Assembly: GCA_002269645.1 (NCBI GenBank)
Contig: NIVC01003654.1
Location: forward strand, 1-64,000
Direction: 5' to 3'
Source: Macrostomum lignano
Taxonomy: Eukaryota
DNA: 64,000 nucleotides
Within the stretch, counting starts at the first letter, position 1. Every line of letters begins with the position of its first letter. A model generated the notes under the pieces. It ran no database searches, was not told the origin of the DNA, and worked only from the letters and a program-made list of their open reading frames with translations. Position numbers and translations under genes: made by a program. Positions 1 to 47,990 of this stretch are shown piece after piece.

Positions 1-3000
1 GTCAGAGGCCAATCGAAATGCCGGATGCTCGTTAAAACACCTTGGATTCAGGTGGACACTCAGGTCGGCTTCATGTCCTTGGGACAGTAGTTCAGCACCT
101 GGGTTTTATTGTTTGAAGTGGCGGGAATTGAGAATCGATTGGTTGCTGGGGCCGCGGCGGGGCTGTTGCGATTGAAAACAAGAATATTGCATAGCTGATG
201 AGCAGCGCGGGGAAATCAATGCCCCCCACCTTAGTTGTGTCGATGCCTTTGGTGACGGCCCAGGACGAGTCACGTAGATAGCGGGCCCTGTACATCTGCA
301 CATCTGGAAGACAGGTGGTGGTCACGTTGCCGAAGATCGTGCGTACACCAGCGCTGCGATTCGGCTTATTTGGAAATAATTTCATTTACATGACTTTATT
401 GACTGAGACTGCACGTACAACCTCTCACAGTGACGAAAGCATCGTGGCCTTCCAAACCACAGTGACCGATGCCCAAACCACAGTGACCGATGCCCAAACC
501 ACAGTGACCGATGCCCAAACCACAGTGACCGATGCCCAAACTACGGTGACCGATGCCCAAACCACAGTGACCGATGCCCAAACCACAGTGACCGATGCCC
601 AAACCACAATGACCGATGCCCAAACCACAGTGACCGATGCCCAAACCACAGTGACGATGCCCAAACATGGATGAATGAATAGAATGGATTGCTATTCTGG
701 CTCTGGCTATTTTCGTTTTTGACTCTTTTGCATCCGGTTCCCCCCCTTGCCTTTTCATTGGTTGATGATTGCCATAGACAATTTTCGGCCTTCGCCCCTT
801 TCTTTCGATGCACAAGCGCAAAGAACTGATTTTATTGTAGACGAATCGACTCTCGAATCGTGCTTGTAGGTCTTCCCCCTTTATTTCAAAACACGAGCGA
901 AAGCGCTTGTGCATCGAAAGAAAGGGGCGAAGGCCGAAAATTGTCTATGGCAATCATCAACCAATGAAAAGGCACGGGGGGAACCGGATGCAAAAGAGTC
1001 AAAAACGAAAATAGCCAGAGCCAGAATAGCAATCCATTCTATTCATTCATCCATGTGCCCAAACTGTTAGCACTGTGATGAACTTTTATTTATTAGAGAA
1101 TGCACTTTGCTTAGTAGCCGTCAACGGCTGAGAATCCTATTGATGTCTATGGACATTTGTACAGTTTAATTCGGTGGCTTAAAGAGTTGCCAAAATATAA
1201 TTGAAAAGACCAAGCGTCTGCAGAGTTAAGCTAAAGGCTGAGACTCGATCAATTTTCTTACTCGTCCCAAAAAAAAACGAACACTGGCGACGACGGCTGG
1301 TCTTATCGAGCCTCTGGAGACAGAAGCCCCAGCGGAAATTGAGCGCTGGTTCCAACGCTTCGAAGCAGTTTCCAAGCTGAACAAGTGGGATGACACCGCT
1401 CAGAAGTTCGCCCTCATCGCACACCTCGGCAAGAAGGCCTTCGCACTGTTGGCGGATGCGCTATTGCCAGATAAGCCTGACGCCAAGACCTACGCTGATC
1501 TGAAAACTCAGCTGATCAAGGAGACGAAAGCGGCGAAATCCGAGATTGCATACCGGTACGCGTTCCATCACCTCAAGCAGGACGACGGCGAAGACGTTTC
1601 TGCCTACGCAAGAAGGCTGCGACTGGGTTCGGAGAACTGCGGCTTTTCAACCGCCGAACTGAATGACCGCCTGCGGATCAATTTATCTTCGGATTGTCGA
1701 ACAAGGAGATCGTCAGAAAGTTGCTCACGGAGAAACTGAAAGATCTGACGTGGGAAAAAGTAACTACGGTGGCCAATGCATGCGAGGCCGTAAGTCGCGG
1801 CGAGAGACAAATCTCAGGAGGCGAAATTCTACATGTCAAGTCAGATCCTCCTTCGACATCGAAAGCCCAGAAGCCAGCGTACCAGAAAAGCGACCAGAAG
1901 AACGGCCAATTGCGCCAAGTCAAGTGCTTCTGCTGCGGCAAGGAAGGACATACAAAGGACCAGTGCCACCACCGGACTAAGACATGCCTTCAGTGTGGTA
2001 AGGTTGGCCATCTCAAAGCAGTTTGCAGGTGCGGACCGAACAAAGGTGAACAACGGCCTTCAACGAGCAACAAATGGTCACAAGGAGGCGGACGGCATCC
2101 AAGGAGCAGAGTCAGAGCAATCGACGATGCAGCTGATCAAGTCGGGCACATTACATTTTCTCGACGATGACGCCGGAAGATGGTCGTGGAAGCAGAAGGA
2201 TAACGCGACATGTAGTAGTCAATGGTACGAAAATCAAGATGCTACTGGACACCGGGTCGTGCTCAACGTTCGTGTCAAGCTCGGTGTTTCAAAGCCTACT
2301 TGAACCAGCAAATGTAAGGCCCACAAGCAGACGATTCGCTGCGTATCAAGGGGATCCAGTGCTAGTGAAAGGCGAAGCTATTGTGAACGCCAAGCTAAAC
2401 TCAGTAAGTTCCGACCTAACTCTGTTTGTGGTGGACAACCCAAAAGCCGAATCTATCTATGGCCTAGATTGGATTGCTGCCCTTGAGCCAGACCTCTACA
2501 CTTTTATTACAAAATGTACGGTGCCTGAGGAAGACGGCTCGAATCCTACAACGGCGTGCTCTGTAAAAAGATTTTCTGTATCATTGGCCATTGAGGCGGG
2601 AGCAAAGCCCATCTTTTTTAAACCTCGGCAAATTCCATACGGGATTCAGGACGATGTCAAGGCCGAGTTGAAGAGAATGGAAGAGGCTGGACAGCTCCAG
2701 AAGGTGGAATCCAGCGAGTGGGCTACACCCATTGTCTGTGTTCGAAAGCAGTCTGGAAAGGTTCGGATTTGTGGTGACTACAAGGTTACCCTCAACCCAC
2801 TGCTGAAAGACATGGTGTCAACAACGCCCACAATTGACGAAGTTCTGTCAAAACTAGGCCGTGCCCGCCGATTCTCTACGTTGGACCTATCAAATGCGTA
2901 CCTCCAAGTACCGGTGGATGAAGACAGCAGCGTGATGCTGACGTGGAGCACTCCGTTCGGCTTATACAGGCCCACTGTATTGGCATATGGAGTAAAGCAA

Positions 3001-6000
3001 GTACCAGCAATTTTTCAGTCATTCATGGACAGGTTGCTTCTAAACATAGAAGGTGTCATTTCCTACCAAGATGACATTCTTGTGTGGGGTTTCAACCAAC
3101 AGAGTCATGACAACAGACTGTCCAATGTGCTTCGAATTTTATAGGAGAGTGGACTGAGCATTAACGAGGAGAAATGAACTTTTAACAAGCCATCTATCAT
3201 GTTCCTGGGATATGAGATCAGTGAAAACGGCATTCGTCCACCACCAAAGAAAGCCAAGGAGATTGCAGGATTAGAAGAGCCAAAGAATCTCAAGCAGCTG
3301 CAGTCATTTATCGGGATGGTCGATTTCTACGGACGGTGTATCAAGAATCTCGCGAGCCTGAAAGAACCTCTAACGAAACTGACCAGGTCAGGAACGAAGT
3401 GGGCATGGGGCCCAATCGAGCAGAGAGCCTTTCAGAGCATCAAGGACGAACTACACAATGCAGTCGCTCTCAAGCCTTTTGATCCATCAGATAAGATTGT
3501 TCTCACTACTGACGCGTCACCATCGGGACTTGGTGCAGTCCTCGAGCAGTCGTCCGGGCCCGTAATATTCATTTCAAAGACTCTAACTCAAGCAGAGCGC
3601 AACTATGCTCAAATTGAACGCGAGGCCCTCGCCATTGTATGGGCTGTGAAGCGCTTACACAAGTATTTGCTGGGACACAAGTTCGTCATTCGCACAGACC
3701 ACCAACCGTTAAAGTTCATCTTTGATCCTGGCAGATCCTTGTCAACTGTTGCTGCAGCGAGAGTGCAACGCTGGGCAATCACTTTGATGAGCTACGAATA
3801 CGCCATTGAGTGCAAGAGATCTGCTGAGATTCCCGTGGCCGATGCCCTGTCAAGACTGCAGAACAGCACGTCTGAAGGGGAGCAGTTTGACATTAGCTCA
3901 GTGCAGGACTGCCTACTAGATTTTCCAATCAACCAGGAGCGTTTGAGAAGACAATCGAAAGAGGATTCAGAGCTCCGGAAGTTATTCGCTCCAGTCAAGT
4001 TTGGCTGGAATGCAGAAGGACTTCGAGAACTACAACAGTTTAGCCGATTCAGGGACGAGTTAGTCATTGAGAATGGGTTGCTGTACAGAGGTATTCGGCT
4101 GGTTGTACCAAAGCAGGAGCGTTCTGCAACTTTGCGATTGCTGCACGAAGGACACATCGGACCAGAAAAGATGAAATCCATAGCTAGACAATGCGTCTGG
4201 AGGCCTGAAGTAGATCGAGACATCGAAAAGTATGCGAAAGGATGTAGTTCGTGCCAGGAAAACAAGGATCATGGGGCCACCCGACAATGGACTTCGTGGC
4301 CGGATGAGACCGAATGCTGGTCAAGAGTTCACATGGACTACGCAGGGCCTATGAAGGGAGGAAACTACATGTTGGTACTGATTGATGCGTTTAGTAAATG
4401 GGCTGAAGTTCACGTGACTAAGGGAACCACTTCATCTGAGACAATCAAGCGACTGCGAAGAACGTTCGCCCAAGAAGGCGTGCCCGTGACTATTGTTTCC
4501 GACAATGGACCTCAATTTGTATCGAAAGAAATGCAAGGTTGGTTAAAAGGAATCAACTGCCGACATGTTCTCACACCACCGTATCATCCAAGGTCAAATG
4601 GTCTGGCCGAGCGCTTTGTGAGAGATTTAAAAAATCACGTCCGAGCCGCTGAAGAAGACGACCTTCAGAGTTGCGTCGACCGGTTTCTGCTTCAATACCG
4701 GAACGCAAAACATTCTACGACCGGAAAATCGCCCTCTGAGCTGATGAGAGGTCACCTACTTCGCACCCCTGCATTTTCTCTGGCACGTGAGCCAGTCTGG
4801 GTGAAAACCTACAACAACGAGATGACAAAGTGGAAGTCTGGCGAAGTGGTGGCAACAGAGGGAAAGGTTGTGGTCGACGTTGAGCTGGAGGACGGAAGGC
4901 GTGGACGCTACCATCGTGAACAGACAAAGCCAAGGAGTTCCGGTTCCGATGACCTGGTGGAGATGGAGACTGAAGAACATGTGCACACGGATCAAGAGTC
5001 TGGTCTTCGGAGAAGTAATCGCCATCGGCAAGTACCAAGGCGACTTGAGTACCGCAAGCTTGGTGTACCTACCTAGCTGTTAACTAATGGGAAGGAGTGT
5101 TAGCACTGTGATGAACTTTTATTTATTAGAGAATGCACTTTGCTTAGTAGCCGTCAACGGCTGAGAATCCTATTGATGTCTATGGACATTTGTACAGTTC
5201 AATTCGGTGGCTTAAAGAGTTGCCAAAATATAATTGAAAAGACCAAGCGTCTGCAGAGTTAAGCTAAAGGCTGAGACTCGATCAATTTTCTTACTCGTCC
5301 CAAAAAAAAACGAACACAAACCACAGTGACCGATGCCCAAACCACGGTGACCGATGCCCAAACCACAGTGACCGATGCCCAAACCACAGTGACCGATGCC
5401 CAAACCACAGTGACCGATGCCCAAACCACAGTGACCGATGCCCAAACCACAGTGACCGATGCCCAAACCACAGTGACCGATGCCCAAACCACAGTGACCG
5501 ATGCCCAAACCACAGTGACCGATGCCCAAACCACAGTGACCGATGCCCAAACCACAGTGACCGATGCCCAAACCACAGTGACCGATGCCCAAACCACAGT
5601 GACCCATGCCCAAACCACGGTGACCGATGCCCAAACCACAGAGACTGAAGCCCAAACCACAGAGACTGAAGCCCAAACCACAGAGACTAATGCCCAAACC
5701 ACAGAGATTGAAAGCCCAAACCACAGAGACTGAAGCCCAAACCACAGAGACTTAAGCGCAAACCACAGAGACTGAAGCCCAAACCACAGAGACTAATGCC
5801 CAAACCACAGTGCCCGATGCCCAAGCCCAAACCACAAGTCAGAAATACATTCTATAAGCCGCAACCAAAGCATTAGTTTCCTTAAGATATTTATAATCAG
5901 CGACATGTATTGAGCTCATCTAGTATTGAGTGCATCTACGGCTGCACTCTCTTTGACCACTTCTAATGACTTGCCGGTAAGCACAAGCTCAATTTGCTAT

Positions 6001-9000
6001 TTCTCTCAGCAGTTCTGTTCCTCTCTCCTTCATCTCATCGCGCTAATTCGGAAGTTTTGTCTGACAAAAACTTGCGACATAAGTAGCAGATCTAGATTTA
6101 ACCTGTTGGCTAACTCGGGAAGAAAAGGGTAATGCAGACGCAGCAGCACAACCCGTCCGTCTGACCAGTCGGGGCCCTCAGCCTCCACAAAGGCAGCGGG
6201 AATGTCACTGCCTTGTTCTTAAGTGCCCAAATAACAGGCGGGCACACAGTTTAACAGCTGCGCGCTGCCCGAGAGCGGCGCTAATGACAGCCTGCTCAGC
6301 CTGTGCTCAGACGGTCATGATGTCGCTTGGGTCCTGAGTACTTGCCGGCCATAGCCGGTGGCTGAGAGAGTCATGATGAGGAAGGCGTCACCTGCTCCAC
6401 GTCCGCTGTCTCCGGGGCGGGGCAGATTTCCACTTCTGTTTTTCCCTCCTCTCTCTCGCAATGTCAATTAGCAAAATCCGAGGGAAATCGCGATCAAGGA
6501 CTGAGATTTTGGGAACTGCTTGGAAAGCGGCGAGCAGGACCGCCTGATGAATGATTAATGCAGTTAGCGGGTGCCGCATCTCCTCTTCACCCAGTCCCTC
6601 CAGCGCCCTCTCCCATTCCTCATGCGCTTTAAAATCCCCTGACAAATCAGTGAGACTGAAATAGGGATTCTTCAAGCCCCATCAAACCATGAGCACCGAG
6701 CCCCTATAGCTACAGGTCGCTCACCGCCAAGCAGCATGAAAACGACCACTACGGCTTTCTCGCCCTCGGTGTAGGGCGCTATGTTGCCGAAGCCCACGCT
6801 GGTAAGCAGAGACAGAGTGAAGTACAGCGATGTGAGATAGGCCATTGACTTGTCCGGCAGAAGCGACTGGTAGGTGTTCTTGGTCCAATTCTTGGGTTCC
6901 AGCGAGTCATTGGCCAACCGGGGAATCCAGCCGTACCAGATCTCAAGGTCCAGGTCGCGCAGCCCTATGGTGTACCAGACGCAGGCCATCCAGTGGGCCA
7001 GCAGCACGAAGCCGAATATCATTAGGATGAGCAGGGCGGCTCCGTACTCCAGGTACTGGTCAACCTTGCGGGCTACGCGACCGATGCGCAGCAGTCGCAC
7101 CACCTTAAGCGCGCTGAATAGGCTGCTGATGCCTCCCTGGTGGATGGTGATGGTCTCGTATGTTGAGAGATAAATAAAATGGTTTAATACGATATCAAGA
7201 CAGCCCTTGTCTTTAATTTGAGTTTCTGCTGTGGTCTATGGCTACTGGGTTAATTGATTTTTCTTTGACATCTTTTCGGATATCTGCTACTGAGATGACG
7301 TCTATATTAGCTGCACTTTGACGTTTATTAGGAAATCTAATGGCATCTGCTTGATGCCTTTTGACGTCTATTCAGGCAGTTTATTAAATGTTCATTAGAG
7401 CGTTCATTGACGTCTATTAGAGTGTTAGAGTATTAGGGTGTTCATTGACGTCTACTAGAGTGTTAGAGTATTAGAGTGTTCATTGACTCTACTAGAGTGT
7501 TGATTGGCGTCGACTAAAGTGTTCATTGACGTCTACTAGAGCGTTAGAGTATTAGGGTGTTCATTGACGTCTACTAGAGTGTTAGAGTATTAGAGTGTTC
7601 ATTGACTCTACTAGAGTGTTGATTGGCGTCGACTAAAGTGTTCATTGACGTCTACTAGAGCGTTAGAGTATTAGGGTGTTCATTGACGTCTACTAGAGTG
7701 TTAGAGTATTAGGGTGTTCATTGACGTCTACTAGAGTGTTAGAGTATTAGGGTGTTCGTTGACGTCTACTAGAGTGTTAGAGTATTAGGGTGTTCATTGA
7801 CGTCTACTAGAGTGTTAGAGTATTAGGGTGTTCATTGACGTCTACTAGAGTGTTAGAGTATTAGGGTGTTCATTGACGTCTACTAGAGCGTCGAATGACG
7901 CTTATAAGGCGTGTTCTTTGACGCCTGTTGAGGCGTCTACCGACGTTAAAGTCTACTGCTCACTCCCTCCCTTTTTGGAAATTTTCCTCAGTGAAAAAGG
8001 AGTGTTGCATTCTAATTATAATTGTGGCACGGCGCTTCTTTTCAAATACCCTGCCGCGTGTCGTCGAGCCTTCGAGCTTTTTTGGACCAGCTAGAGACGA
8101 GATTGAGCAGGCACACCCAGTCTCGAGTGGAATCTTGAGTCGGAAGATGTTTACTGAGCTCGATCGGTACTCGCAAATCAGTATTCTTTTGGGAATTTTG
8201 CCCTTGCCTACTAATTGCATGGAGAGTGGAGAGCCACGGAGGACATGGGATTATTGATGCATAAACGCGAGCTTTGTTGAAAATAGGGGTTTCATGTGGA
8301 CGCGATTGTTTGGGCAAAAGCAGGTAAAAAGCGATAATTTTAGGTAGCGCGCAGAGGTTCGGAAATCTATCTAGCACAACAAAAATCAAATATGAAAAAG
8401 TTAACAATTCCGTTGAGCGAACAATGGCGTTCCGCCGGGAAGGCATGCTAAAGCCTTGCTCAAGCGTAGGAATTGGCAGATACAGAGTTCAGGTTTTGCC
8501 AGCGATTATTCAGTTATGCGGGTACTAATTCCTCATTTTTGCTTTCAAAATTTGGTTTTGGTTTTTATGAGTAATTCTTTGAGTCACTCGTATTTCTAGT
8601 CATTTCGACCGTTACTCACATCTGTTGACTCCGGTTGAAAGGCATTGAACACGTCATAGGGCAGACACGAGAGCAGATCAATGACGAACCAGCCTTTCAG
8701 GTAATTGACACGAATAATCGACGGGTCGGAGATCACTTCGCCGTTCGGCCCGACAAACGTGGTGTGAAAGTTCAGCACAATGTCGATGAAGAAGATCACA
8801 TCGACGATGCTGTCCGTGACAATGAAGGAGACGTCGTCCATCGTCTTGAACTTGAAAGCTACGTTGAACGGGACCATGACCGCCGTGTAGCCCGTGAGGA
8901 TGAGGATTATCCAGTCCCAGATGGTCTTGAAGGCCGAGTAGTGCAGGATGATGTGCGGCGGCGTCTTTGGTGCCTCCTGCTTGTACTGCGGCAGGACGTC

Positions 9001-16112: not shown

Positions 16113-25143
<9,031 letters not shown>

Positions 25144-36000: not shown

Positions 36001-36734
36001 TAATTTTGAATTTAAGGGGGGGACTGAAGTAGGTGATGCGAGGACCAATCAGAAGCCAGAGAGAAGGAGAGATAAGAAATCGCAGTGAGCAAGAACGAGA
36101 TTGAACTAGACAAGTCAAGAGACAACGGCAGATTAACTTAAGGAGGTTAATAATGTAAAATAATAAGCGAAGATCTCAAAAAACGCACCTGAACTTCTGG
36201 TGCCGTGGCGTCCATGATGGCCTTGTCAGTGCGCGTGTTGGTCTGGTGATCGGCCATCAGGGTGGCTACGCAGAAGTCGCCCACAGAGATGCTCAGATCG
36301 TCTCTCAGGAAAATGTTGGACGCTCGAATATCGCCGTGGCAGAGGCCTCTGCCGTGAATGTAGGCGAGAAACTCCAGCGTCTGGCCGAACCATTTCCGCA
36401 CGATCTCCTCGTCCAGCGGTTTTTTGTCCTTGAGCTTGCGGCTGGTGATGCTCTCCAGGCTGCCGTTGGGAAAGTGGTCCATAACGAAGCAGACGTAGAC
36501 GGAGGAATGGTCGGCGTTCCAGTCCACGAAGATCTCGCGGTAGGGCGCAGCGAACGGGTGCCGGATACTCGTCAGCCGGAGCGACTCCTTGAAGGCTTTG
36601 TTGGCGGAGCTCTCGTCGTGGCATTCAACTCGCTTGAGGGCGTAGCGAAGGCGATCGGCCGTGGCGGCCTCCACCAGCAGCACGGTGCCCAGAGGCCCCG
36701 AACCGAGCTGCTTCACTACCAAGTAGTTTTCCAT
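33093..36734 (-). CDS. STKLD1: STKLD1 (SgK071)-like Ser/Thr kinase domain plus C-terminal ARM-like repeats, 661 aa
   Basis: Exons (minus): 36189-36734, 35512-35877, 35216-35419, 33925-34440, 33093-33446, all phase 0. MENY..LGSGPLG..ALKRVECHDE..YREIFVDWN..VYVCFVM, HGDIRASN, GDFC, APE, DMWGLGC; helical ARM-like C-terminus. Confidence 0.8.
33450..33912. repeat. Degenerate AGAGTGACA-core intronic repeat
   Basis: Repeated TAGAGTGACAGTAGATGGCAT variants filling the last STKLD1 intron. Confidence 0.85.
34470..35200. repeat. 31-bp intronic minisatellite
   Basis: Unit TAGTCTGGTCGAGGGAATTCCTGAAGTAGTC and variants. Confidence 0.9.
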
Positions 36735-37131
36735 TGATCAGCTGAAATCCCCGACAGGGAGGGGTGGGAAAATACAGACATGACAGCCCATTCTCAGGCG
36801 TTTAGATAGCACTTTGGAATGGATAGCAGGCAGTGAGCATCGTTGCGTAGCTTTTAGCCAAATAAAGAAGCTTGTGCCTTCGATACACTCACCGAATTCT
36901 ATAAATAGAGCCTGGACAAAAGCAATCGTCTGCAGCCCAACCGTCTATGGGCACCTGGCCCCCTCTTTTCTCTATTATAACTAACTTCTACTCACGTGTA
37001 TCAAGACTAAACCACAACTCTATAAGGCCAAGGTTTATATACATTTTTGTTATTAGACAGACTAGCATTGCAGCTGATGAATCCGGACAACTCAAGCAAT
37101 TCTTGAAGCATTCAGCTCTCAAAGCTCGAGT

Positions 37132-38424
37132 ATGTCCACAGGACGAGGCCGCTTGGCCAGCGGCTACAGCCGAGCGCGTCGCCGATTTTGCTCGCGTCGA
37201 GAGTCATTGGAAGACTTCTCAGTGCAGTCGTACAATGCGACGACGCCCAGCAAGACGACTGCCACTCAGCCTGCGGTGGCCGCGGCTGGTCAGTTCGGCA
37301 ACCTGGGCGGTCCCTACCTGCAGCAGGTGATGCCCGGCCTGCACTTGGGCCTCTCATGGCGCCAGATGTTCTTCAGCTTGTTCTTTGTCTCCATAGCACA
37401 CGGAGTATTGGCTTATTTTGCATTCATTAGCTGGCTGGGCACCACGGAAGTGCTGGTCTCCTACACCAGCTGTGCGAAGCTGTCGTATCCGAATCAAACT
37501 GCCCAGGAATGCGAGGTGACCTTCAACCTGCCGGCTCAGATTGACGGTCAGGCGTACGTGTACTTTCGCCTGTGCAATTTCCATTTAAACCATCGTCACG
37601 TGTACTCCTCGTGGAGCATGCCCCAGCTGCTCGGTAAGAAGCCGAACAATATCAAATACTCCTGCAAGAAGTTCACTTATCGCGACGAAAAGCTCGTGCT
37701 GCCGTGCGGTGCGCTGCCCAATGCCATCTTCAACGACACTGTTAACGTCACGGGACCGCTGAACTGTGAGTACGCAGGCAGTCAAACCTTGCACAGTTAA
37801 AACTCATTCAGAACTGACCTTGTAGAGATGCACTTAGACATTGTACAGTCTTACTCAACAAGCACCATTCCCAAAGCTCGAAATCCTCATTTGAACTGCA
37901 AATACGCCAACTGCCCTCTAAAAAACCTCTCAGCGGACACCAAAAACGCGACAACAATTCCCCTGTCAAGCAGCAACCTCAGCTGGCCGAGTCACACGGC
38001 TGGCCTGCACAAGGCCCTGCCGGCCAAGCTGCTGGAGAACACCGTCAAGCCCATGAACTGGCCCGAGCCGGCCGCGATTCGGTACAAGCGTCCGTTTGAA
38101 AACGCGGACGATTTATGGGTCTGGCTGGTTACGCCAGCCTTCCCCTGCTTTCGCAAACTCATTCATTGGGTGGATTCCAATGAAAGCCTGTCAGCTGGAA
38201 AGTACAAAATGTCCATCGGCTATCACTACCCAGTGGCCGGGTTCGGCGGCACGAAGAGCTTCGTCGTGGCTGGCAAGTCGCTGCTTGGCGGAAAGAACCT
38301 GGCGCTGGCTGTACTGCCGTCGGCTGTCAGCGCCGTCTACTTCCTGCTGAGCTTGTCAACTCTGATCGAGTGCTACTGCAGACTGCGGAAGAGGGCCATT
38401 GCGCTGGGCATTGTGGTTGACTAG
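37132..38424 (+). CDS. TMEM30: CDC50/TMEM30 family P4-ATPase flippase beta subunit, divergent, 374 aa
   Basis: Exons 37132-37765 and 37934-38424 (phase 1). LQQVMPG, TM1, VYFRLCNFHLNHRH, LPCGALPNAIFNDT, WLVTPAFPCFRKL, YPVAGFGGTKSFVV, LGGKNLAL, TM2. Confidence 0.88.
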
Positions 38425-38968: not shown

Positions 38969-40769
38969 CTAAGGGGAGACAGCAACAATGGAACAACCCA
39001 TTACTATTGGCTGCTCTGATGTTGTAGTTCATAGCTAATATTGGCTTTAGATAGGGTAGTCAACACAGGAGTCACTTTCAATTCTTCCATAGAACTGAGC
39101 TTGCCAATGCAGTCCAATGTTGCTCCTCTAGCAGATAGTTGGTGATTAATTTGCTCATGCTATATTCCCAATAATATATAATTTGCTCTGAAAGGCAAGC
39201 TTATTGCTAACAATTAGTTTGTTGTACCAAGAAATGTGCATGTATAAAAAGTACAAAAAGCTCCAAAATACAACTTTATGTCAAATATATCTTATATGCA
39301 TGTATATTCATGCATTTAAACTAAATTATCTCAATTAAAGGAGCCAATGAACATATGTGATCAAAGGTGCATAATATACTCCTATTTATGCCTACTTGAA
39401 GAAAAATATTACTGATAAAATATGATAAAAAATAGTATGATAAAATTGCATTGCATAATATGATAAAAAATAATACTGAATAAAAAATATTGAAGCTTCT
39501 TGCAGCTTGTGAGCAGTATAAACAAAAAACTAAAGAAATTCTTAAATTATGTAATTATTGTATAAATTCCTACTGAGCACTATGGCATGGTTAGGAAGAT
39601 AGTTTAACTCTAATTTAAAACGAGAGCAATTCAAGACAGGTTTTATAGCTTCAATTAGTTCAAAAAATCTTGGATTCGATTGAATTACAATGTCATTTAC
39701 TTTATCCATACCATAAATTTAGGTTTGAATTGATTATGTGCTATTTATGAGTTCATGAAAAGTGTGAATTTATCGCAGACTACACGAAAAGTAAACAATC
39801 ACTTTTTCTACAAAATCGAAAGCAAAAGAACAAAATAATGAGGCTGTTGGGAATAGTCTCAAAATACTTTGTCTGCGACAAGACAGCAAAAAAGTGCTAA
39901 TTTAGAAATCTGTTGGCTAAATTGTTTCAAACTAGTTAGAAATATAATACAATTTTTACCACATACAATTTTTGTATCTATTAGTTGTCCCATCAAAATT
40001 GGCCCAGCAGTTTTGGAGAAGATATCGAACTGACAAACAAACAAACAAGAATACAGACCTTAGAGATGGTAGTATATTTAGATTTAAGTCGTTGTAGTCT
40101 AACAAAGTTAAATTATTAATGTATAGTAACAGGAACTCATTGTAAAACTATCTTTTACATTGCGTCAAAACTTTTTGAAACTATTTTCAAAGTTTATGTA
40201 AGCCAGATAATATAATTACGAAAGCATGTTTTAGGGATCGTATAAAAATTTGTTAAAACTGCCTACTTTCAAACCGTCGTATTTACTTTAACCCAGTTTT
40301 TGCTATTTTGTAATAGACTAATACTCTAAAAATATTTTCTGCTAGTGGTCATTCGATTGAATTTATTTATTGCTAAAGCAATGAAAGAAATATACGAATT
40401 TTCATTAGTTTTTGTTTGCACTTGGTAGAAAAATTCCACCCACAGAAGATTTAATGTAATCAATTTTTTCGAAAAAAAACTAACTTTTAGATATTCGAAA
40501 CACAGAGAACTAATACGAGTAGCATACGATAATTCCACACCCTAATTTTTTCATGTAAAATGAATGGGTTGTTTACCGGCACTCTTATCGTACACATGTG
40601 CAAATTCACGAGCAATATATTTTTAAAAGCAAATTTAACCCTCCACCAAAACACGAATTCCCATCACCACCATGAGCCAGCATCAGACGTTGGTGCTGCC
40701 CATACTACCAACTCCCGAACAGCCAGCGGTTCCGGCTGCCGGTGCCACACTGCGCGGGCAGTTGGCCCT

Positions 40770-41125
40770 CCCTAGCCCAACCAACCTCCACGTGGGGGGG
40801 GGGCGTGGTATAACGCTCCAGAACCAGCTGGGCCACATGTGTCGCGCACGGCAGACGGATCTTCTCATCCGGCGTGTTGTACAGGATCACGTGGAGCTCC
40901 CCGGTATAGTCCGGGTCCACCACACCACCCTGCACAGTCAGGCCCCGATTGGCCCAACTTGAGCAGCTCGCGATCCATAGGTGCCTGGCGGCAGGATAAC
41001 GCAAAGGCCTGTGCGTATATGATGGCAGTATCACAGCCCTCCACGGTCCAATTTTCACTGGTAGCCAAATCGTACGTCACTGATCCTGCCCCGTGAGCCG
41101 CCGCGGCATCGCAGCGCCATGATCC
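40770..41125 (-). pseudogene. dut: dUTPase pseudogene (frameshifted)
   Basis: Across frames: MPRRLT/GAGSVTYDL..TGLCVILPPGTYG/IASCSSWANRGLTVQGGVVDPDYTGELHVILYN..HVAQLVLERYTTP, matching trimeric dUTPase motifs 1-4 with at least two frameshifts. Confidence 0.85.
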
Positions 41126-41369
41126 ACTAGCACGATGCTCAACGGGACTGTCGATCAGGCTCTGGGTGTAGTACTCATCGCGGCTGAGGGTTCATAGTTC
41201 ATTGGATTCTTATCATCTTCTAAAATGACTCTACTACTACCCTCATAATCCTCGCCCCAACAAAAAAGCTAAGCCTAGTACTAACCCCCAGTATCATCCT
41301 AGAAAACAAAAAATACATCGAGAAAGATATATTGCGAGCAAAAAACATAAACAGACAAACAATAGAGAA

Positions 41370-44170
41370 CAATTGAAGTCAACCGCCAATGACCAAATAA
41401 GAGATATGAGTAGGGATCAACCCAGGCTTGCTTCGTGTCGAAAAAGCTAAGCGCTTGCTTGAGCTGCTCAAAAAGATCTTCTGTCGCCGCGAGGTAATCG
41501 TCCGCATCGTTACTGCATGCTCCAACACTCGATCCTTCCACACATTCAAAAATACGTTGCGCTTCATACCTCTAACAATCGACTTCGACACGCCCATGCA
41601 CCGCAAATCTGACAGAGGGTTTTCCTTTGCATACATGTACACCATTGAATAGTTTTTCGGCCTTAGAAATGCAAACTCCAACGGTGTACAACATGAAACT
41701 TCATCTTTTTAAACCATTAACTTCCCTTTCTACTTTTTTGTATAAACCGGATGAGAAGGTGGATAAATACTAATGTCTAATACACCGCACTCCACCAAAT
41801 CTTTACAAATCTTTACAAACAACTTATCCCGGGGACTCGTCTCCGGGTAGGCTATAATCAATGCCAAGATAAAAAAATCCGTATATCTATCAAGCACGCG
41901 GGCAGAAGCAAGTGACTGATGACATTGAATCCTTGAATAGAAAAACTCGTAGACAAATGTCTTCGCAAGGTCCAGAATAGCGCTACTAATCAGAATTGGC
42001 TTGTTTAGCAATACTCAACGAGGAGTCCAACTCACGCCCACCAGACGGTTTGTGTACAAAATCACGTCCATAAATTCCTCTTTAGCGACGTACGTTTCTA
42101 ACTTTTCGGCACTAGTACACATGCAATAGCTCAGCCTGTCTCGAACCCGCTGCAGAAACTTGCCGTGCACCGCATTGTTTAATATTTAAAAAAATCTAGA
42201 TCGAAATCGCTGGTCGCCTCAGACCGCCGACGAATATTATGTTCAATGTATTCCTGTAAAATAGGACCTTCTACAAATTCGAGAACACGATTTACACGCG
42301 TCACACGCATGCCTAACTCGAGGTAAATACGCAATGCTCAATTATGTACAATGTACCCCTCTTTGTGTGTCACAGAGCCGATTAGCTTCCCTGTCGGAGA
42401 AGCTAATCGTTTTACGTCCTTGTATACCTCCGCATTCCTCCTTCTTGGATTAAGCTGACATTGTAGACAAACCCAATCCTGCTTCATATGCTTAGTTAGG
42501 TAAGCACTATCAGTTCTCTCATGGCCAATAGCCAGAGGTAGATCGGCAGCAGAGTCGTGCAAAAACTTCGGGTAGTACATATCGACATTCAGTAACGACC
42601 CTCGTCCATTCGCGCAATAGCTAGACAGCCAGTTCAAAAACTGACTCGACTTACTCGGATTTTCCAACTCCGCAACATCATCAACTGGTAGATTTTCATG
42701 CACTCTACGAGGCAACCAACGATAGGCTTTATACGGCAGGGCCTGCACCATAAAACTGGAGTAAAAAGAATTAGCATTAAGGTAGGCCAAGTGAGTGCCA
42801 TACGGTGCATTCTGTCACAGTCCTCTTAAATCCAGATCGTCGTCAAGGTCCAGCTGACGACGACATTCTTCTACCATAGGATTGTTTGCCATAGTAAGAT
42901 GTCGAGTGCCGAAACGAAACCCGCCTCGAATCGAAGCTTCAACCTCGGAGTACATACGAGCGTCTGAAAACAACTCTATCGGCTCCTTCACCTTCAATAG
43001 ACACGCAGCTAGACTATACATTGGCGATCCAAGAAAATGGCACACATCCAGACCGTATTCTCGTATTGCAGTCCGACGAAAACTCTCAAATGAATTGCAT
43101 AGCAGTAGTGAATCCAACAGTAAATACGCGGTCACATAGCCACGCAAATTCTCACAATCAAACTCTTGCCAACTCTGCTAAGCGCGGGTGTAGTACATCT
43201 CAGAACACTCTTGCCGGGTCATTGAATCGTAAAACAAATCTCGCGGTGGCAGTTCAGTTACACTGTCCAACTTCTCATCAGAGTCCAAGTAACATTACGG
43301 AAACACTCCGTTGGAGTTTAGGAGTTTAGGAATGGAAGTTTAGGAATGGAAGGCTTGTAGTTTAGGAATGGAACGGATCGGCCAGATCGTCCAGAGTGGA
43401 TTCTGTTGGACCGGACTGCGCGCCCGCCGCCACGCCCGCCGCCGCCGCCGCCATCGCCCCGCCGCCCGCCCCCACACGTCGTCTGTGCGTCTCTGGCGGC
43501 GACGACTGCTCGACTGTAGGTATTTTCGACGGAATATGGACAGCATGACGTCGACCTTGACAACGGTGAGGAACTTCCAGTTACTACCGCGGGACTGGAA
43601 ATTAGATAGTCCAGGGAGATGGCCTCCTCACCTGTACCTCGTACGTCTGCGTTGAGTGATGCGCTGGCCAGCTCGGGGTCGATGCGCAGGTATTTGAGGG
43701 TTGTGCATGTTCACGCTGGTGAAGGGCACCCCAGTCGCTTCGAGGACAAGTAGTTGACGCTGAGAGATCGCCGATTCAGCATCAGAGAGTGAGCCTTGAT
43801 GGTGTAGAACCTCTTGAAATGCTCGGGCAGAAACATAATATTCTCGTGGTGGTGCAATTTTTCGGTTGGGAATGCAGTTAACCAACAACAAAAGCACAGA
43901 ATATTCTGAGAGCTAGTAGTCTTTGCAGCTATTAAAACAATATTAAGGGAATCAAAAATATTGCACACAGTTCCATTGATTGAGTCAGTACTAAGGACCG
44001 TGGTAGCTTGTGGGAATTTTTTCGCGTCGTAATAGATCCGACGATCGTTTGAGCGTTATAATACTGCATGAGGGTGGGAGAATTAGTTACACGCATTTTA
44101 TGAAACCGAATTGCGTGCTCGTTGCTAGATTGAAAAAAACAGGGAGGGTTTGCACCCTAGATTGGAACAC
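41370..44170 (-). pseudogene. Fossil protein-primed family-B DNA polymerase (pPolB), Polinton/adintovirus type
   Basis: Ordered motifs: PVFFNL (about 44140), NGVFP*CYLDS..ELPPRDLFY (43312-43230), YLLLDSLLL..FESFR..YGLD, SIRGG..ANN, YLNANSFYS..QALP, VDMYYPKFLHD..DLPLA, NRVLEF, KY[L]NNAVHGK, KPI..ILDLAK..YEFFY, LRPKNYS, ALSFFDTK..FGHW; multiple stops and frameshifts. Confidence 0.88.
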
Positions 44171-44743
44171 GGGTGGTGTTTTCCCATGGAGGTCCGTTTG
44201 TAGAAAAATATCGGGGAGGGACGTTTTATTAGTGTTCGGCGTGGAGTGGTTGGTTCACAGCGTGGCGTTATCCAAATATACTAAATCCATATGCTATGTG
44301 CCGATAACAGAAATGTTGCAACCACCCCACATATTTTGAATTTCGTATCAAGGGGAGAGGCCATTGAGTTCGAGGGGAAAACTTGTGCTTCTCGCTTGCT
44401 CGATAGCTTATGCATGACATTGGCCCATGCCCAGGACAGTGCGTGACTGGAGCATTGGAAATTGCAGCCGGACTATTTTGAGGAGCTTTCACGCAGTTTT
44501 GCCTTTATTGAATACGGGAGCGAACGGCTGCGGCGAGTGGCGCGCCATATGTTGCCTGGTAAGTAGTTTTTTACCTACTCTATCTCTGTATTGTACCATA
44601 TTTTAGCAATAGAGTACTAGAGCATCATATGGCAACTTCAGTAAACAATAGACGAGACGTCCGTCCGGTCGGAGCGATTCCGTCGACTATGCAGGGGCGA
44701 TACGATCCTAACTATGGTAACAATGGGCGCGAATGTTAGTGCT

Positions 44744-44830
44744 CCTACGACATTGGTATGTAAAAGACATTCTCCTACGACATTGGTATGCAAAAGACAT
44801 TCTCCTACGACATTGGTATGTAAAATACAT
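44744..44830. repeat. 30-bp triplication
   Basis: CTCCTACGACATTGGTATGTAAAAGACATT x3. Confidence 0.85.
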
Positions 44831-47299
44831 TCAGCGTTATATTACGAGTACTTAGTGGTATTTTAACTTAATATACTACTTATCTAATGGTAGGATTACA
44901 TCAGCGCAAGGATGGCCTTGGACGAGTTAAGAGGGAAGCGGCCCGAGATTCGGAATCGTGAAGCGGGTTATGAGATAAGATACTTTTTAGTTAGTAGTCA
45001 CTAATCTATTATTTAACGGGTGTATTGTGCCTTTTAGCAACTGTCCATGGATGACAGGCTATGGTGCTACAAAATGAATGGGCCTCCAAAGTTGTCGCAC
45101 GAACGCATGACTCGCTGCCGGAAGTAGAGGCCCGTCGAAGGGAGGTAAGACAAAATATTCATGCTTTTCTTGTCGCAGAATGCACTAATTAATCATGGAA
45201 GCCCGATTCTCCTTTTAGGCCCAGGCTGCATGGGTGAGTGAGGAGGTACTTTTTTGTGAGGGTAAAATTTATGCTGTCTGTATGAAAATTAAATTATTTG
45301 TCTGATCTTTCTTGAAATCTTAGGAGCGCGAGAGGCTGTTGTTCGCGGGATTTGTAACGAGGTGCTGATACAGCGTTAATATATTTAGTGTGAAACAAGT
45401 CTATTAATGTAGACCAGCTTTACTATATGCTGCCACACATTCCAGGCTGCGGGTGTTCCGTCCGGCGATCGGAATCCGGTACAGCCTATGACGGTCAGTG
45501 ATACTTGCAAAATTAAGAAAATAAAGGCTAAAATCTTATTTGAAATTCGTGTTACAACAAAAGTTATTAATGCAACCAATTTCAAATTCCGTGTCCGCCA
45601 TTCGGTCGCGGAAATCCTCGCGGATAGTGATAGATACATTTCATAATCCTTGGTTTCAGGATGCGGGCCTGTCCAAGCCATTCCGCTCGAGGGGTTGAGT
45701 AGTCTTGAGCATACCTTTTGTTGGTACATTGCGGGCAAAGTTAGAGGAGGCTACTACTTTGGGGCAGGTTCGTTACAGACTGAGGTCTATCTATATACTT
45801 GTAAATACATGATTGTGTGTAACTTTGGTTTAGTGCAGGGTTGTTCGTATGTGCTTGTTTATTCTTTTAGTTTTGTGTGCAGTATAATCCTTAATCCGTT
45901 AGTTCCGAGTCGTTTGTTCATTGCAATGGTTTGCTAGCGGGGGACTGTGTCTCATTATCGGAAAATGACTCGTTTGTTAAGGAATGGAGAGGAGACGGTG
46001 ATACATTCGGGATTTGAGTTTGCGGTGGTGTGGTTTTTTCTGCGGTATGTTTGACAGCTTAATTGTATGGGTATACGTGTAACTATGCTATAAATTCCCT
46101 CTCATATCGACTTTCCAAGGATCGAAATGCAAGTAACTTGCTTAGGGACTACGATGCCAGCTGGCCGGGAGGGAGGGGGGAGGGCGGCAGACCGCAGGCG
46201 GAACCGCGGTGACTACGTTCGCTGTGCCAACTCCTGTCGGCCCACGGGGGGCGCTCAGGGGTATTTCTAGTATGACTTAATCAAGTGTTTAGCTTTTATT
46301 TTTACTTATTGTATTACGGTAAATTTTATTAGTGAATTCTATTTGTGTTTGCTCACTCGTTGTTGTTGTGACTTTTTTCGCCGTCTACTTTTCTACATGT
46401 TAACATAGTACGGTAAATTTATTAATGAATGCTTTTTATATAATGAATTTGGTTACTTCGTTGTTTTGTCTTCTTTCGCCGTCTACTTTTTGCATGTTAC
46501 CATCTACTGTAAACTTGCTTGCGCGCTATTATTTCTACGTGTAAAAATACATGTACAGTACATTGGCCTAGCCGTATTCGTTATTAAAATGTGCGGAGTT
46601 ATGAGTTATGCCTCAATTATTCTACATGTACTGGGGGGGGGGGTAAATGGCGCGATAACGGAGAATTGAGCTTTAAGTTAAATATTAATTTACTGGAAGT
46701 GGCATAAGCTGCATACGGCATACGCACCTCCTGCCACCCGACCTGACGAGGCTCAAGAATTATTTGAGCAGCTCTCGGTACAGGTGAAGGTAACGGCGCA
46801 GCGCGACACAGCGATAATCCTCGTAGACCCGAATGCGGTTTTGCATAGGTCCGAGCGGTCGCAAAGTGCAGGCTCGCAACTTTTTTGGGTTGCAAGCGCA
46901 GGCGGCGGAACGCGCGTGGCCGGAACGCAACACGGAGGCAGGCACTTTTTTTATTAGAGGCAGGGGGTTGTGTGCACCCTGGCGCACTTTAAGCGACATG
47001 GCGCACAATCGGCGAGAGGCATTGCTGCCCATTCCGCCGACTCCCCTGAGCAGGCACACAAGCGCGCGGATACGTACGCAGGCACACACACACAGGAGTG
47101 TACAGCGGCCCTAACTTTATATTATCGTTAGGCATGTACACTTCACTGCGCCTTGGGGGGTTGGCTCTCAAAGCCGTTAATTGCACGAGCAGAGCCAAGC
47201 CGAGATTCCAATTCAGCCCCAAATTAATGTGACTGCTGGAATCGAGCCTGGGTCGCTGGCACACCAGAGCCTGCGCTAGACCGCTGGGCTACGGCCCCC

Positions 47300-47990
47300 C
47301 TTAGGAGGCAGGCACAGCTCGATCATGTGCTGGTGCGCTTCTGCGAGCGCCGCCACGTCGTCAATTGCCGCGCCATCACGCCGCTGGCTCTTCGGTCCCA
47401 TCATCGACTCCTCGTCTGCGACCTTCGTCTTCGCGATCCGCTCTACCATCCGCCGAAGCAGCCACCGCGGCGCTATCACCACGCGCTCAAGGACGCCAAC
47501 GCGCACAGCCGCTTTGCTAGCGCTTTCAGCACTGCGCCCGGCGGCAAGCGTGGAGGTGTTGCATAATATTGTTCAGTGTGATGCGACAAGTTACAAGCTG
47601 AATAGTGACAAGCTGCAAGTGTGTGTGATTTTCGTTGCACACACGCACTTGCAGTTCACTGTGGATTTGTGAACTCCATGCGAATCACCAATAGCCGAAA
47701 AAGTTGCTCCAGTAGCAGATAGCGTAGAGCGACCCTAATCTGCTGTTATGGACTCAGAGCAAAATTGCACCCAGTCGGGTGCTGCAGACGCTCGCCAATC
47801 AGATGACACAGTTCGTCGACATGTTCCTCTCGCAAGCAAAACCTCGATTGATGATCATTGTAGTCAATATAAAATTCGAAATCTATGCTTTCGTTGAATG
47901 TTCGGGGACGCTTAATTGGCTCCTCCGACGAAATCTTCTGAATCTGACTCGTACGCTCGTAGAACATTTTCGCTCAATGGATGTGATATG
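47300..47990 (-). mobile_element. PIF/Harbinger transposase remnant, internally deleted
   Basis: SRFCLREEHVDELCHLIGERLQHPTGCNFALSP*QQIRVALRY[fs]ATGATFSAIGDSHGVHKSTV matches the HARBI1-type N-terminal HTH region; DDE core not seen. Confidence 0.75.

Follow-up and report, generated by a model that had tools for sequence, protein, structure and literature searches.

A short run of Macrostomum lignano DNA, positions 41370-44170 of the 64,000-nucleotide stretch analysed here (contig NIVC01003654.1 of assembly GCA_002269645.1; hereafter the window), holds what an initial annotation took for a fossil protein-primed DNA polymerase (pPolB) of an endogenous Polinton/adintovirus-like element. Our analysis supports that reading, and raises the question of which element the polymerase belonged to, what became of it, and whether the remnant still has a role. 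We conclude with high confidence that what remains at these positions is part of the polymerase gene of a Polinton (Maverick) copy that is dead, has lost internal segments and likely does nothing today. The window copy is an older sister of a 21-kb family in the same genome; the observations behind this account are sequence identity, deletions, decay, TIRs, TSDs and splice joints in contigs.

A polymerase remnant identified through an open relative

Searching the genome's DNA with window positions 41800-43300 returned 22 matches, some of them copies at 87-88% identity. One relative, on contig C1668, carries a 1482-aa stop-to-stop pPolB frame that matches DNA_pol_B_2 (PF03175, E 3.5e-20), endonuclease VII (E 8e-9) and phrog_1907 (E 2e-9); a PDB sequence search with this open frame gave no credible match. 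Aligned to it by tblastn, the window reaches 84% identity over aa 833-1218 (387 aa, E=0), 75% over aa 1212-1470 (266 aa), 82% over aa 1450-1482 and 90% over aa 252-282, and retains aa ~843-1482 and ~252-337 of the frame. The identification runs through this relative because no window fragment alone matches a pPolB profile: Pfam gave no polymerase match among 50 stop-to-stop window fragments (0 of the 6 from the polymerase), and a PHROGs scan matched none of 4 polymerase fragments. With 75-84% identity to an open-frame pPolB elsewhere in the genome, a resemblance that greatly exceeds chance, the minus-strand remnant is real.

The motifs named in the annotation all lie on the minus strand in the order claimed: GVFP*CYLDS (~43300), IRGG (~42930), ANN (~42890), YLNANSFY (~42790), ILNNAVHGK (~42185), LDRYTDFF (~41895), LRPK (41666) and FGHW (~41390). 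The motif A Asp is indeed lost (YLNANSFY in the window, YLDANSLY in the relative), and motif C reads LDRYTDFF against the relative's GGDTDSL. Other parts of the annotation need revision. Rather than nearly the whole pPolB, the window holds two parts between which 1.5 kb is deleted, the alignment jumping by that length between 43312 and 43365, so that ~505 codons are absent. These codons encoded a likely vOTU, endonuclease VII and the Exo I/II motifs; in the relative, Cys and His motifs of the likely vOTU can be seen at aa ~363 and ~468. The domain order of pPolB is as described in PMC11161782. The supposed GC-rich insertion at 43315-43530 (62% GC) belongs to the same gene, aligning at 75% with its N-terminal part, and the short tandem filler at 43323-43352 alone is unmatched. 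The PVFFNL stretch (~44140), likened earlier to ExoII, falls outside pPolB and maps to the right arm, which places it ~3.4 kb upstream of the relative's pPolB, and at 46.4% GC against 48.8% for the window the block is not notably AT-rich.

Anatomy of the window copy

Colinear blocks shared with elements on C362, C297 and C1431 place the polymerase remnant inside a longer copy with the following parts.

40518-46722, unstranded: decayed, internally deleted Polinton/Maverick copy
40518-40587, plus: decayed left TIR remnant (local score 49 against the family TIR)
40712-41268, minus: frameshifted dUTPase pseudogene belonging to the element (Pfam PF00692, E 3.7e-12; 54% identity to the family dUTPase)
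41377-43312, minus: C-terminal ~640 codons of pPolB, from the late exonuclease region to the end, with stops and frameshifts (tblastn 84%/75%/82%)
43323-43352, unstranded: short tandem filler (14-bp unit, 2.1 copies) where the two sides of the 1.5-kb pPolB deletion meet, in the unmatched gap 43312-43365 of the DNA alignment to the relative
43365-43609, minus: remnant of the pPolB N-terminus, a GC-rich linker covering aa ~252-337 and 75% identical in DNA to the relative's frame; likely the end of the terminal-protein domain
43603-43882, minus: deoxynucleoside kinase remnant (59-64% identity to the family ORF, which matches PF01712 at E 7e-24)
43912-44041, minus: TBP-like gene remnant, second repeat (67% over 43 aa; family ORFs match PF00352)
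44072-46041, plus: right-arm remnants with the PVFFNL stretch (68-70% DNA identity to the right arm)
46603-46722, unstranded: last traceable right-arm piece (73% to a stretch ~170 bp from the end of a mini-derivative on C529)

The copy thus spans ~6.2 kb, against 21.1 kb for the family, with 4646 of its 6205 bases in matched blocks. Its left TIR remnant, placed at 40518-40565 by this score, narrowly outscores the best of 200 shuffles (49 against a mean of 29 and a maximum of 47) and exceeds the second-best place in the window (34), and the palindromic core of the TIR occurs once in the window and, in the relative, at its two ends only. For a right TIR the best score in the window was 32, within the shuffle range, and no right terminus was found there; unrelated repeats (46718-47527) begin at ~46718, near the end of the last right-arm piece. 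Among the right-arm remnants are the opening exons of a multi-exon gene that runs opposite to pPolB, and its exon-1 remnant terminates in a GTAAGT donor.

Just after the left TIR remnant ~8 kb is missing, the whole structural module. Altogether, the integrase/protease/ATPase/capsid module, the ssDNA-binding-like gene and the central part of pPolB were lost through at least five internal deletions, and tblastn with the relative's integrase, protease, ATPase, PLA2 and capsid candidates found no match in the window. The annotation, which had identified no integrase, ATPase, protease, capsid or TIRs, overlooked the adjoining dUTPase, kinase and TBP-like scraps together with the left TIR remnant. 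Nor is the element type open, as it had stated: relatives at 83-88% DNA identity have the features of standard Polintons (TIRs, TSDs, an integrase, a protease and a probable ATPase), and it is by internal deletion that the window came to lack these genes.

A young 21-kb Polinton family

Besides the open-frame pPolB on C1668, the genome contains TIR-bounded elements on C362 (21.1 kb) and C297 (20.3 kb), whose TIRs of 65-71 bp start with AGTAGT and are 93% complementary. They encode, in order, a protease, a probable major capsid protein, a 135-aa protein, an integrase with chromodomain, a 234-aa protein, a pX-like protein and a probable minor capsid protein, followed by a probable ATPase, PLA2, dUTPase, pPolB, kinase, TBP-like and ssDNA-binding-like (SSB-like) genes and the right arm. 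A 6-bp TSD flanks three sister elements on single contigs (C2529, C114 and C2542). In the young family, five 6-bp TSD words pair across different contigs, which shows the duplication and suggests that flanks were swapped between near-identical copies in the assembly; with swapped flanks, copy-specific frames may be assembly errors.

The integrase of the relatives matches rve at E 5e-7 (30.3 bits, below the curated cut-off of 32.6) and carries a chromodomain. A protease profile built from 7 family members finds ASFV S273R (E 3.7e-13) and adenain (E 1.4e-3), with invariant His, Gln and Cys. The probable ATPase has a visible Walker A motif and a Pox_A32 match below the curated cut-off (E 0.024). 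PLA2 is assigned by PF08398 (E 1.6e-8), and the pX-like match (E 1.5e-4, under the cut-off) lies in a separate ORF. The candidates for the double and single jelly-roll capsid proteins are ORFs of 440 aa (major) and 328 aa (minor) in the usual module; neither has a Pfam match, a profile of the 440-aa protein has no PDB match, and both are named as probable capsid genes from position, size and motifs.

Across the genome the major capsid candidate finds 97 matches, which group near 100, 75, 65 and 33% identity. Its top database matches are labelled Macrostomum lignano (100, 65 and 63%), followed by one other at 44% and the rest at or below 36%; IMG/VR scans with the candidate, single and aligned, found nothing. 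Among 37 metagenome capsid loci a protease homologue adjoins in 25 and an ATPase homologue stands beside the candidate in 9. Cargo genes occur in none of the 37, a count that says nothing about cargo rarity because the loci are short (just 10 reach 5 kb) and all end before pPolB. An Rfam search of 9 family loci gave 0 matches.

Contigs from three probable RNA runs, from three studies, show ten GT-AG joints over the right half of a young copy; the runs' RNA status is a tool's guess, none being recorded as RNA. Seven of the ten joints appear in two or more runs and none in the DNA run compared. They include a 117-nt in-frame kinase intron, one joint in the SSB-like gene and one near the end, and seven define the multi-exon gene on the strand opposite pPolB (locus L067 5269-7100, plus). 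Two exons of that gene matched nothing in PHROGs, and the LxCxE 'oncoid' motif is absent from the right-arm exons translated. The young family is multi-copy and appears to be transcribed.

On C1668 itself the left 1.6 kb recurs in inverted form at 41380-42967, in place of the right arm. A 6-mer in its flank matches the left flank on C356, which would fit either a genuine variant with long TIRs that was still able to integrate or a false join in the assembly.

Sister families and mini-derivatives

A 14.7-kb sister family (C2542:22576-37303 and C424) has TIRs, a 6-bp TSD, integrase, protease, ATPase and capsid candidates, and its pPolB is cut to a 296-aa N-terminal frame that stops where the likely vOTU begins; this frame is probably the terminal protein only. 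By coordinates the short spacing holds in 25 of 26 near-identical copies, two of which were checked directly. A partner that is 96% identical (C2373, C1136) has an open 1415-aa pPolB and occurs on fewer contigs. The 14.7-kb family looks like a satellite borrowing a polymerase.

Old mini-derivatives of the same lineage lie on C529 (96156-98460), C714, C257 and C3298; that on C529 is 2.3 kb long, with both termini and no TSD. At C4948:6826-13857 a second gene set, with an A32 ATPase and a jelly-roll-like gene, stands directly upstream of a Polinton polymerase; its proteins partly resemble those of an element on C114, and it may be a nested element.

Decay, age and alternative readings

Over 624 compared pPolB codons the window copy shows 7 stops and 4 frame-shifting gaps, with dS 0.25, dN 0.073 and dN/dS 0.29. 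In a quick tree (not maximum likelihood; 59 candidate rows, 2 dropped as too short; built without plasmid or organellar polymerases) it is sister to the young family with support 100, its end branch measuring 0.11 against 0.013. The identical insertion with its flanks is found on C280 (97-99%) and on C3945 and C4734 (over 99.6%); with the three subgenomes of M. lignano 1.9-2.4% apart according to PMC10733133, this would fit an insertion older than the subgenome split. The C280 copy additionally bears a 2-kb mariner-like element (HTH and DDE_3 matches) inside pPolB, at C280:30119-32181. The codon comparison and the tree suggest that the window copy passed through a phase under selection and then decayed neutrally.

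Was the structural module deleted in place, as we prefer, or had it been lost before this copy inserted? The copy might descend from a non-autonomous subfamily that first lost the module and was mobilised in trans, a history that we consider possible but rather unlikely. A similar TIR-to-dUTPase junction is common to C257 and C3298, but the window's other junctions are shared with none of the copies compared. The 2.3-kb mini-derivatives on C529 and C714 share several blocks with the window, but the C529 element lacks a TSD and each mini-derivative pair may represent one insertion on duplicate contigs. Amplification of the polymerase-deleted sister family in this genome also favours a non-autonomous origin, as does the dN/dS of 0.29, which indicates selection for a time after the split from the young family; that signal, however, is explained by an autonomous phase.

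The same ratio, being below 1, and the presence of the remnant on all duplicate contigs could be taken to mean that the host domesticated the polymerase core, the dUTPase or the right-arm exons and kept them for a function. We find this very improbable: the gene carries 7 stops and 4 frameshifts, its catalytic motifs A and C are altered, nearly all the amino-acid change lies on the window's own branch, and the C280 copy took the mariner-like insertion. Capture of a polymerase of linear-plasmid, organellar or adenovirus type, or descent from an unrelated virus lacking an integrase, would accord with the window's lack of integrase, capsid and a complete TIR pair, but is practically dismissed by 83-88% DNA identity to elements of this genome that have TIRs and an integrase and by nearest database proteins that belong to the host-labelled family and insect Polinton-like proteins, in a tree without plasmid or organellar polymerases.

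Cargo genes

dUTPase, kinase, TBP-like and SSB-like genes occur in the same order on C1680, C2529, C889, C1975 and the second element on C272, and the kinase is missing from C1136, C2373, C84, C424 and C2542. The kinase ORFs match PF01712 at E 1e-20 to 7e-24. The TBP-like ORFs match PF00352 at E 2e-7 to 3e-4, and their family profile finds 1230 proteins. A TBP member from another family, on C114, matches PDB TBPs at E 8e-11, and the top Foldseek rows for its low-confidence structure model (mean pLDDT 55) are all TBP, at E of 1.5e-3 or above. A TBP-kinase fusion, suggested by one C362 frame containing both, was ruled out by separate ORFs in C1680 and C2529. Across the genome 150 TBP-family matches were scored, mostly with repeated identical scores. 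In the distant Polinton family to which the C114 member belongs (C114:251152-265467), the strong TBP homologue (E 9e-21) is accompanied by a PC4-like gene and by a second gene of jelly-roll-like type.

The SSB-like call rests on database gene model P0212, a spliced ORF. The protein falls with Atlas clusters of Nucleocytoviricota (0.94-0.95), in which 10-17% of members carry DUF2738, DUF5871 or Pox_I3. Its structure model, of low confidence (mean pLDDT 49), aligns to ASFV CP312R with Z 7.8, the best value and one in the range that the tool calls common (rmsd 5.6, 152 aligned), to T7 gp2.5 with Z 4.4 and to the Enc34 SSB with Z 3.5, and matches NCLDV proteins at E 2e-5. There is no sequence-level match, and its profile has no credible PDB match. 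The three signals are concordant but weak, and together form a consistent lead, rather than proof, that the family may encode a T7 gp2.5/NCLDV-type ssDNA-binding protein.

Identity to a host-type locus and among family members is 38-50% for the dUTPases and 23% for the kinase, so that no cargo donor can be named. DNA-level dN/dS of cargo genes between families gave no alignment, the genes being too divergent.

Discussion

The family shares most of its plan with known Polintons/Mavericks as set out in PMC11161782 and PMC6431247: a pPolB with a long N-terminus and an inserted endonuclease, an RVE integrase, an Ulp1/adenain-type protease, a probable packaging-type ATPase, probable capsid genes, TIRs and a 6-bp TSD. 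The differences are that the copy in the window, besides being dead, has no structural module, and that the family has short TIRs (65-71 bp) and four further genes, for a dUTPase, a deoxynucleoside kinase, a TBP-like and an ssDNA-binding-like protein. With adintoviruses bearing the Mayetiola-class (Alpha) virion module (PMC8502044) it shares a parvovirus-like PLA2, a pX-like protein, protease, integrase, a probable ATPase and a gene region upstream of PolB; unlike in Alpha adintovirus PLA2X, the PLA2 and pX-like matches of the family fall in two different ORFs.

For three of the four cargo types PMC8502044 offers some precedent: its Fig. S2 maps are labelled dUTPase and SSDBP and its Fig. 5 legend (MELD virus) TBP. 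In its text and in the part of its supplement covered here, a kinase is not mentioned as cargo and no map with all four cargo genes appears. Maps of PLVs carry a DUF2738 label (10.1101/2022.07.28.501842). A word look-up in the available text of Polinton papers (for one of them without kinase) found no mention of dUTPase, TBP or kinase as cargo. In the literature searched, which excludes Repbase and most supplements, we found no paper on these elements or on the four-gene cargo set. As to the suggestion that the element may be undescribed for this lineage, these searches turned up no paper on a Macrostomum Polinton, but the relatives' proteins are already public as hypothetical proteins.

The family's SSB-like protein resembles Nucleocytoviricota ssDNA-binding proteins (ASFV CP312R, DUF2738, T7 gp2.5 type) in predicted fold and in an acidic C-terminal tail; unlike them it has no sequence-level match, and its gene is deleted from the window. 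ASFV CP312R reportedly binds ssDNA. Adenoviruses, like the family, combine protein-primed replication with a DNA-binding protein, a dUTPase in some genera and spliced genes near the genome ends, but they are not known to have an integrase, have a separate terminal protein and use a DNA-binding protein of another fold.

How would such an element live and die? By analogy with established Polinton biology, the linear form of the living family would be excised or copied, possibly packaged, and integrated by the RVE integrase. Its pPolB, primed by its own N-terminal terminal-protein domain, would copy the linear form from the TIR ends by strand displacement, and host Pol II and the spliceosome would transcribe and splice the element's genes. 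Judged by family membership, the ssDNA-binding-like protein would coat and protect the displaced strand, the kinase and dUTPase would raise the dNTP supply and limit uracil in DNA, and the TBP-like protein would act at, or steer, element promoters; these cargo functions are predicted to suit replication in non-dividing cells. The window copy would owe its insertion, along with a 6-bp duplication, to the RVE integrase of the family, at a time when the host subgenomes had not yet split. Thereafter stops and frameshifts built up and other repeats replaced its right end, a decay that may have been neutral.

It has been proposed that larger eukaryotic DNA viruses descend from Polintons; if an animal lineage carries kinase, dUTPase, SSB-like and TBP-like genes, it would illustrate such gene gain in a living case. 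The lineage of the fossil looks active and is unusually rich in accessory genes, whose predicted products are more typical of large DNA viruses. Tentatively, and at something short of an even chance, we propose that this flatworm Polinton lineage assembled a large-DNA-virus toolkit (NCLDV-type SSB, kinase, dUTPase and TBP-like) in an integrating genome of 21 kb and expresses this toolkit from spliced transcripts. On the same tentative reading the lineage also sustains a satellite family, which has retained capsid, integrase and, of pPolB, the terminal-protein part only, and which borrows the polymerase in trans. The fossil is ordinary, and the cargo set makes the family a modest variant of Polintons. 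Because integrase-linked pPolB genes are so many (>20,000 in 960 genomes in the survey of 10.1101/2023.08.22.554363), the fossil itself matters little. The family is of more use: with its young, numerous and apparently transcribed copies in an animal kept as a laboratory model, observation alone could address whether animal Polintons form free linear DNA or particles.

Other elements at and beyond the locus

Elsewhere in the window a Ty3/Gypsy retrotransposon with gag, protease, RT, RNase H and integrase lies at 1242-5076 (plus). Host gene pieces follow in the order ion channel (6675-7235), kinesin (18103-19326), protein kinase (36150-36737) and CDC50 (37081-38424), standing among very dense tandem repeats (65 rows). 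A 360-bp repeat at 46946-47302 has 3163 first-look candidates in the genome, with copies 95-97% identical. Beside the C362 Polinton, an open frame of 2229 aa at locus L016 2290-8976 (minus) gives matches to SecA DEAD-like, helicase and OTU profiles, and on C976 (locus L040 2990-3532, plus) a Fic-domain ORF (E 1e-13) lies inside or beside a polymerase-less Polinton-like module.
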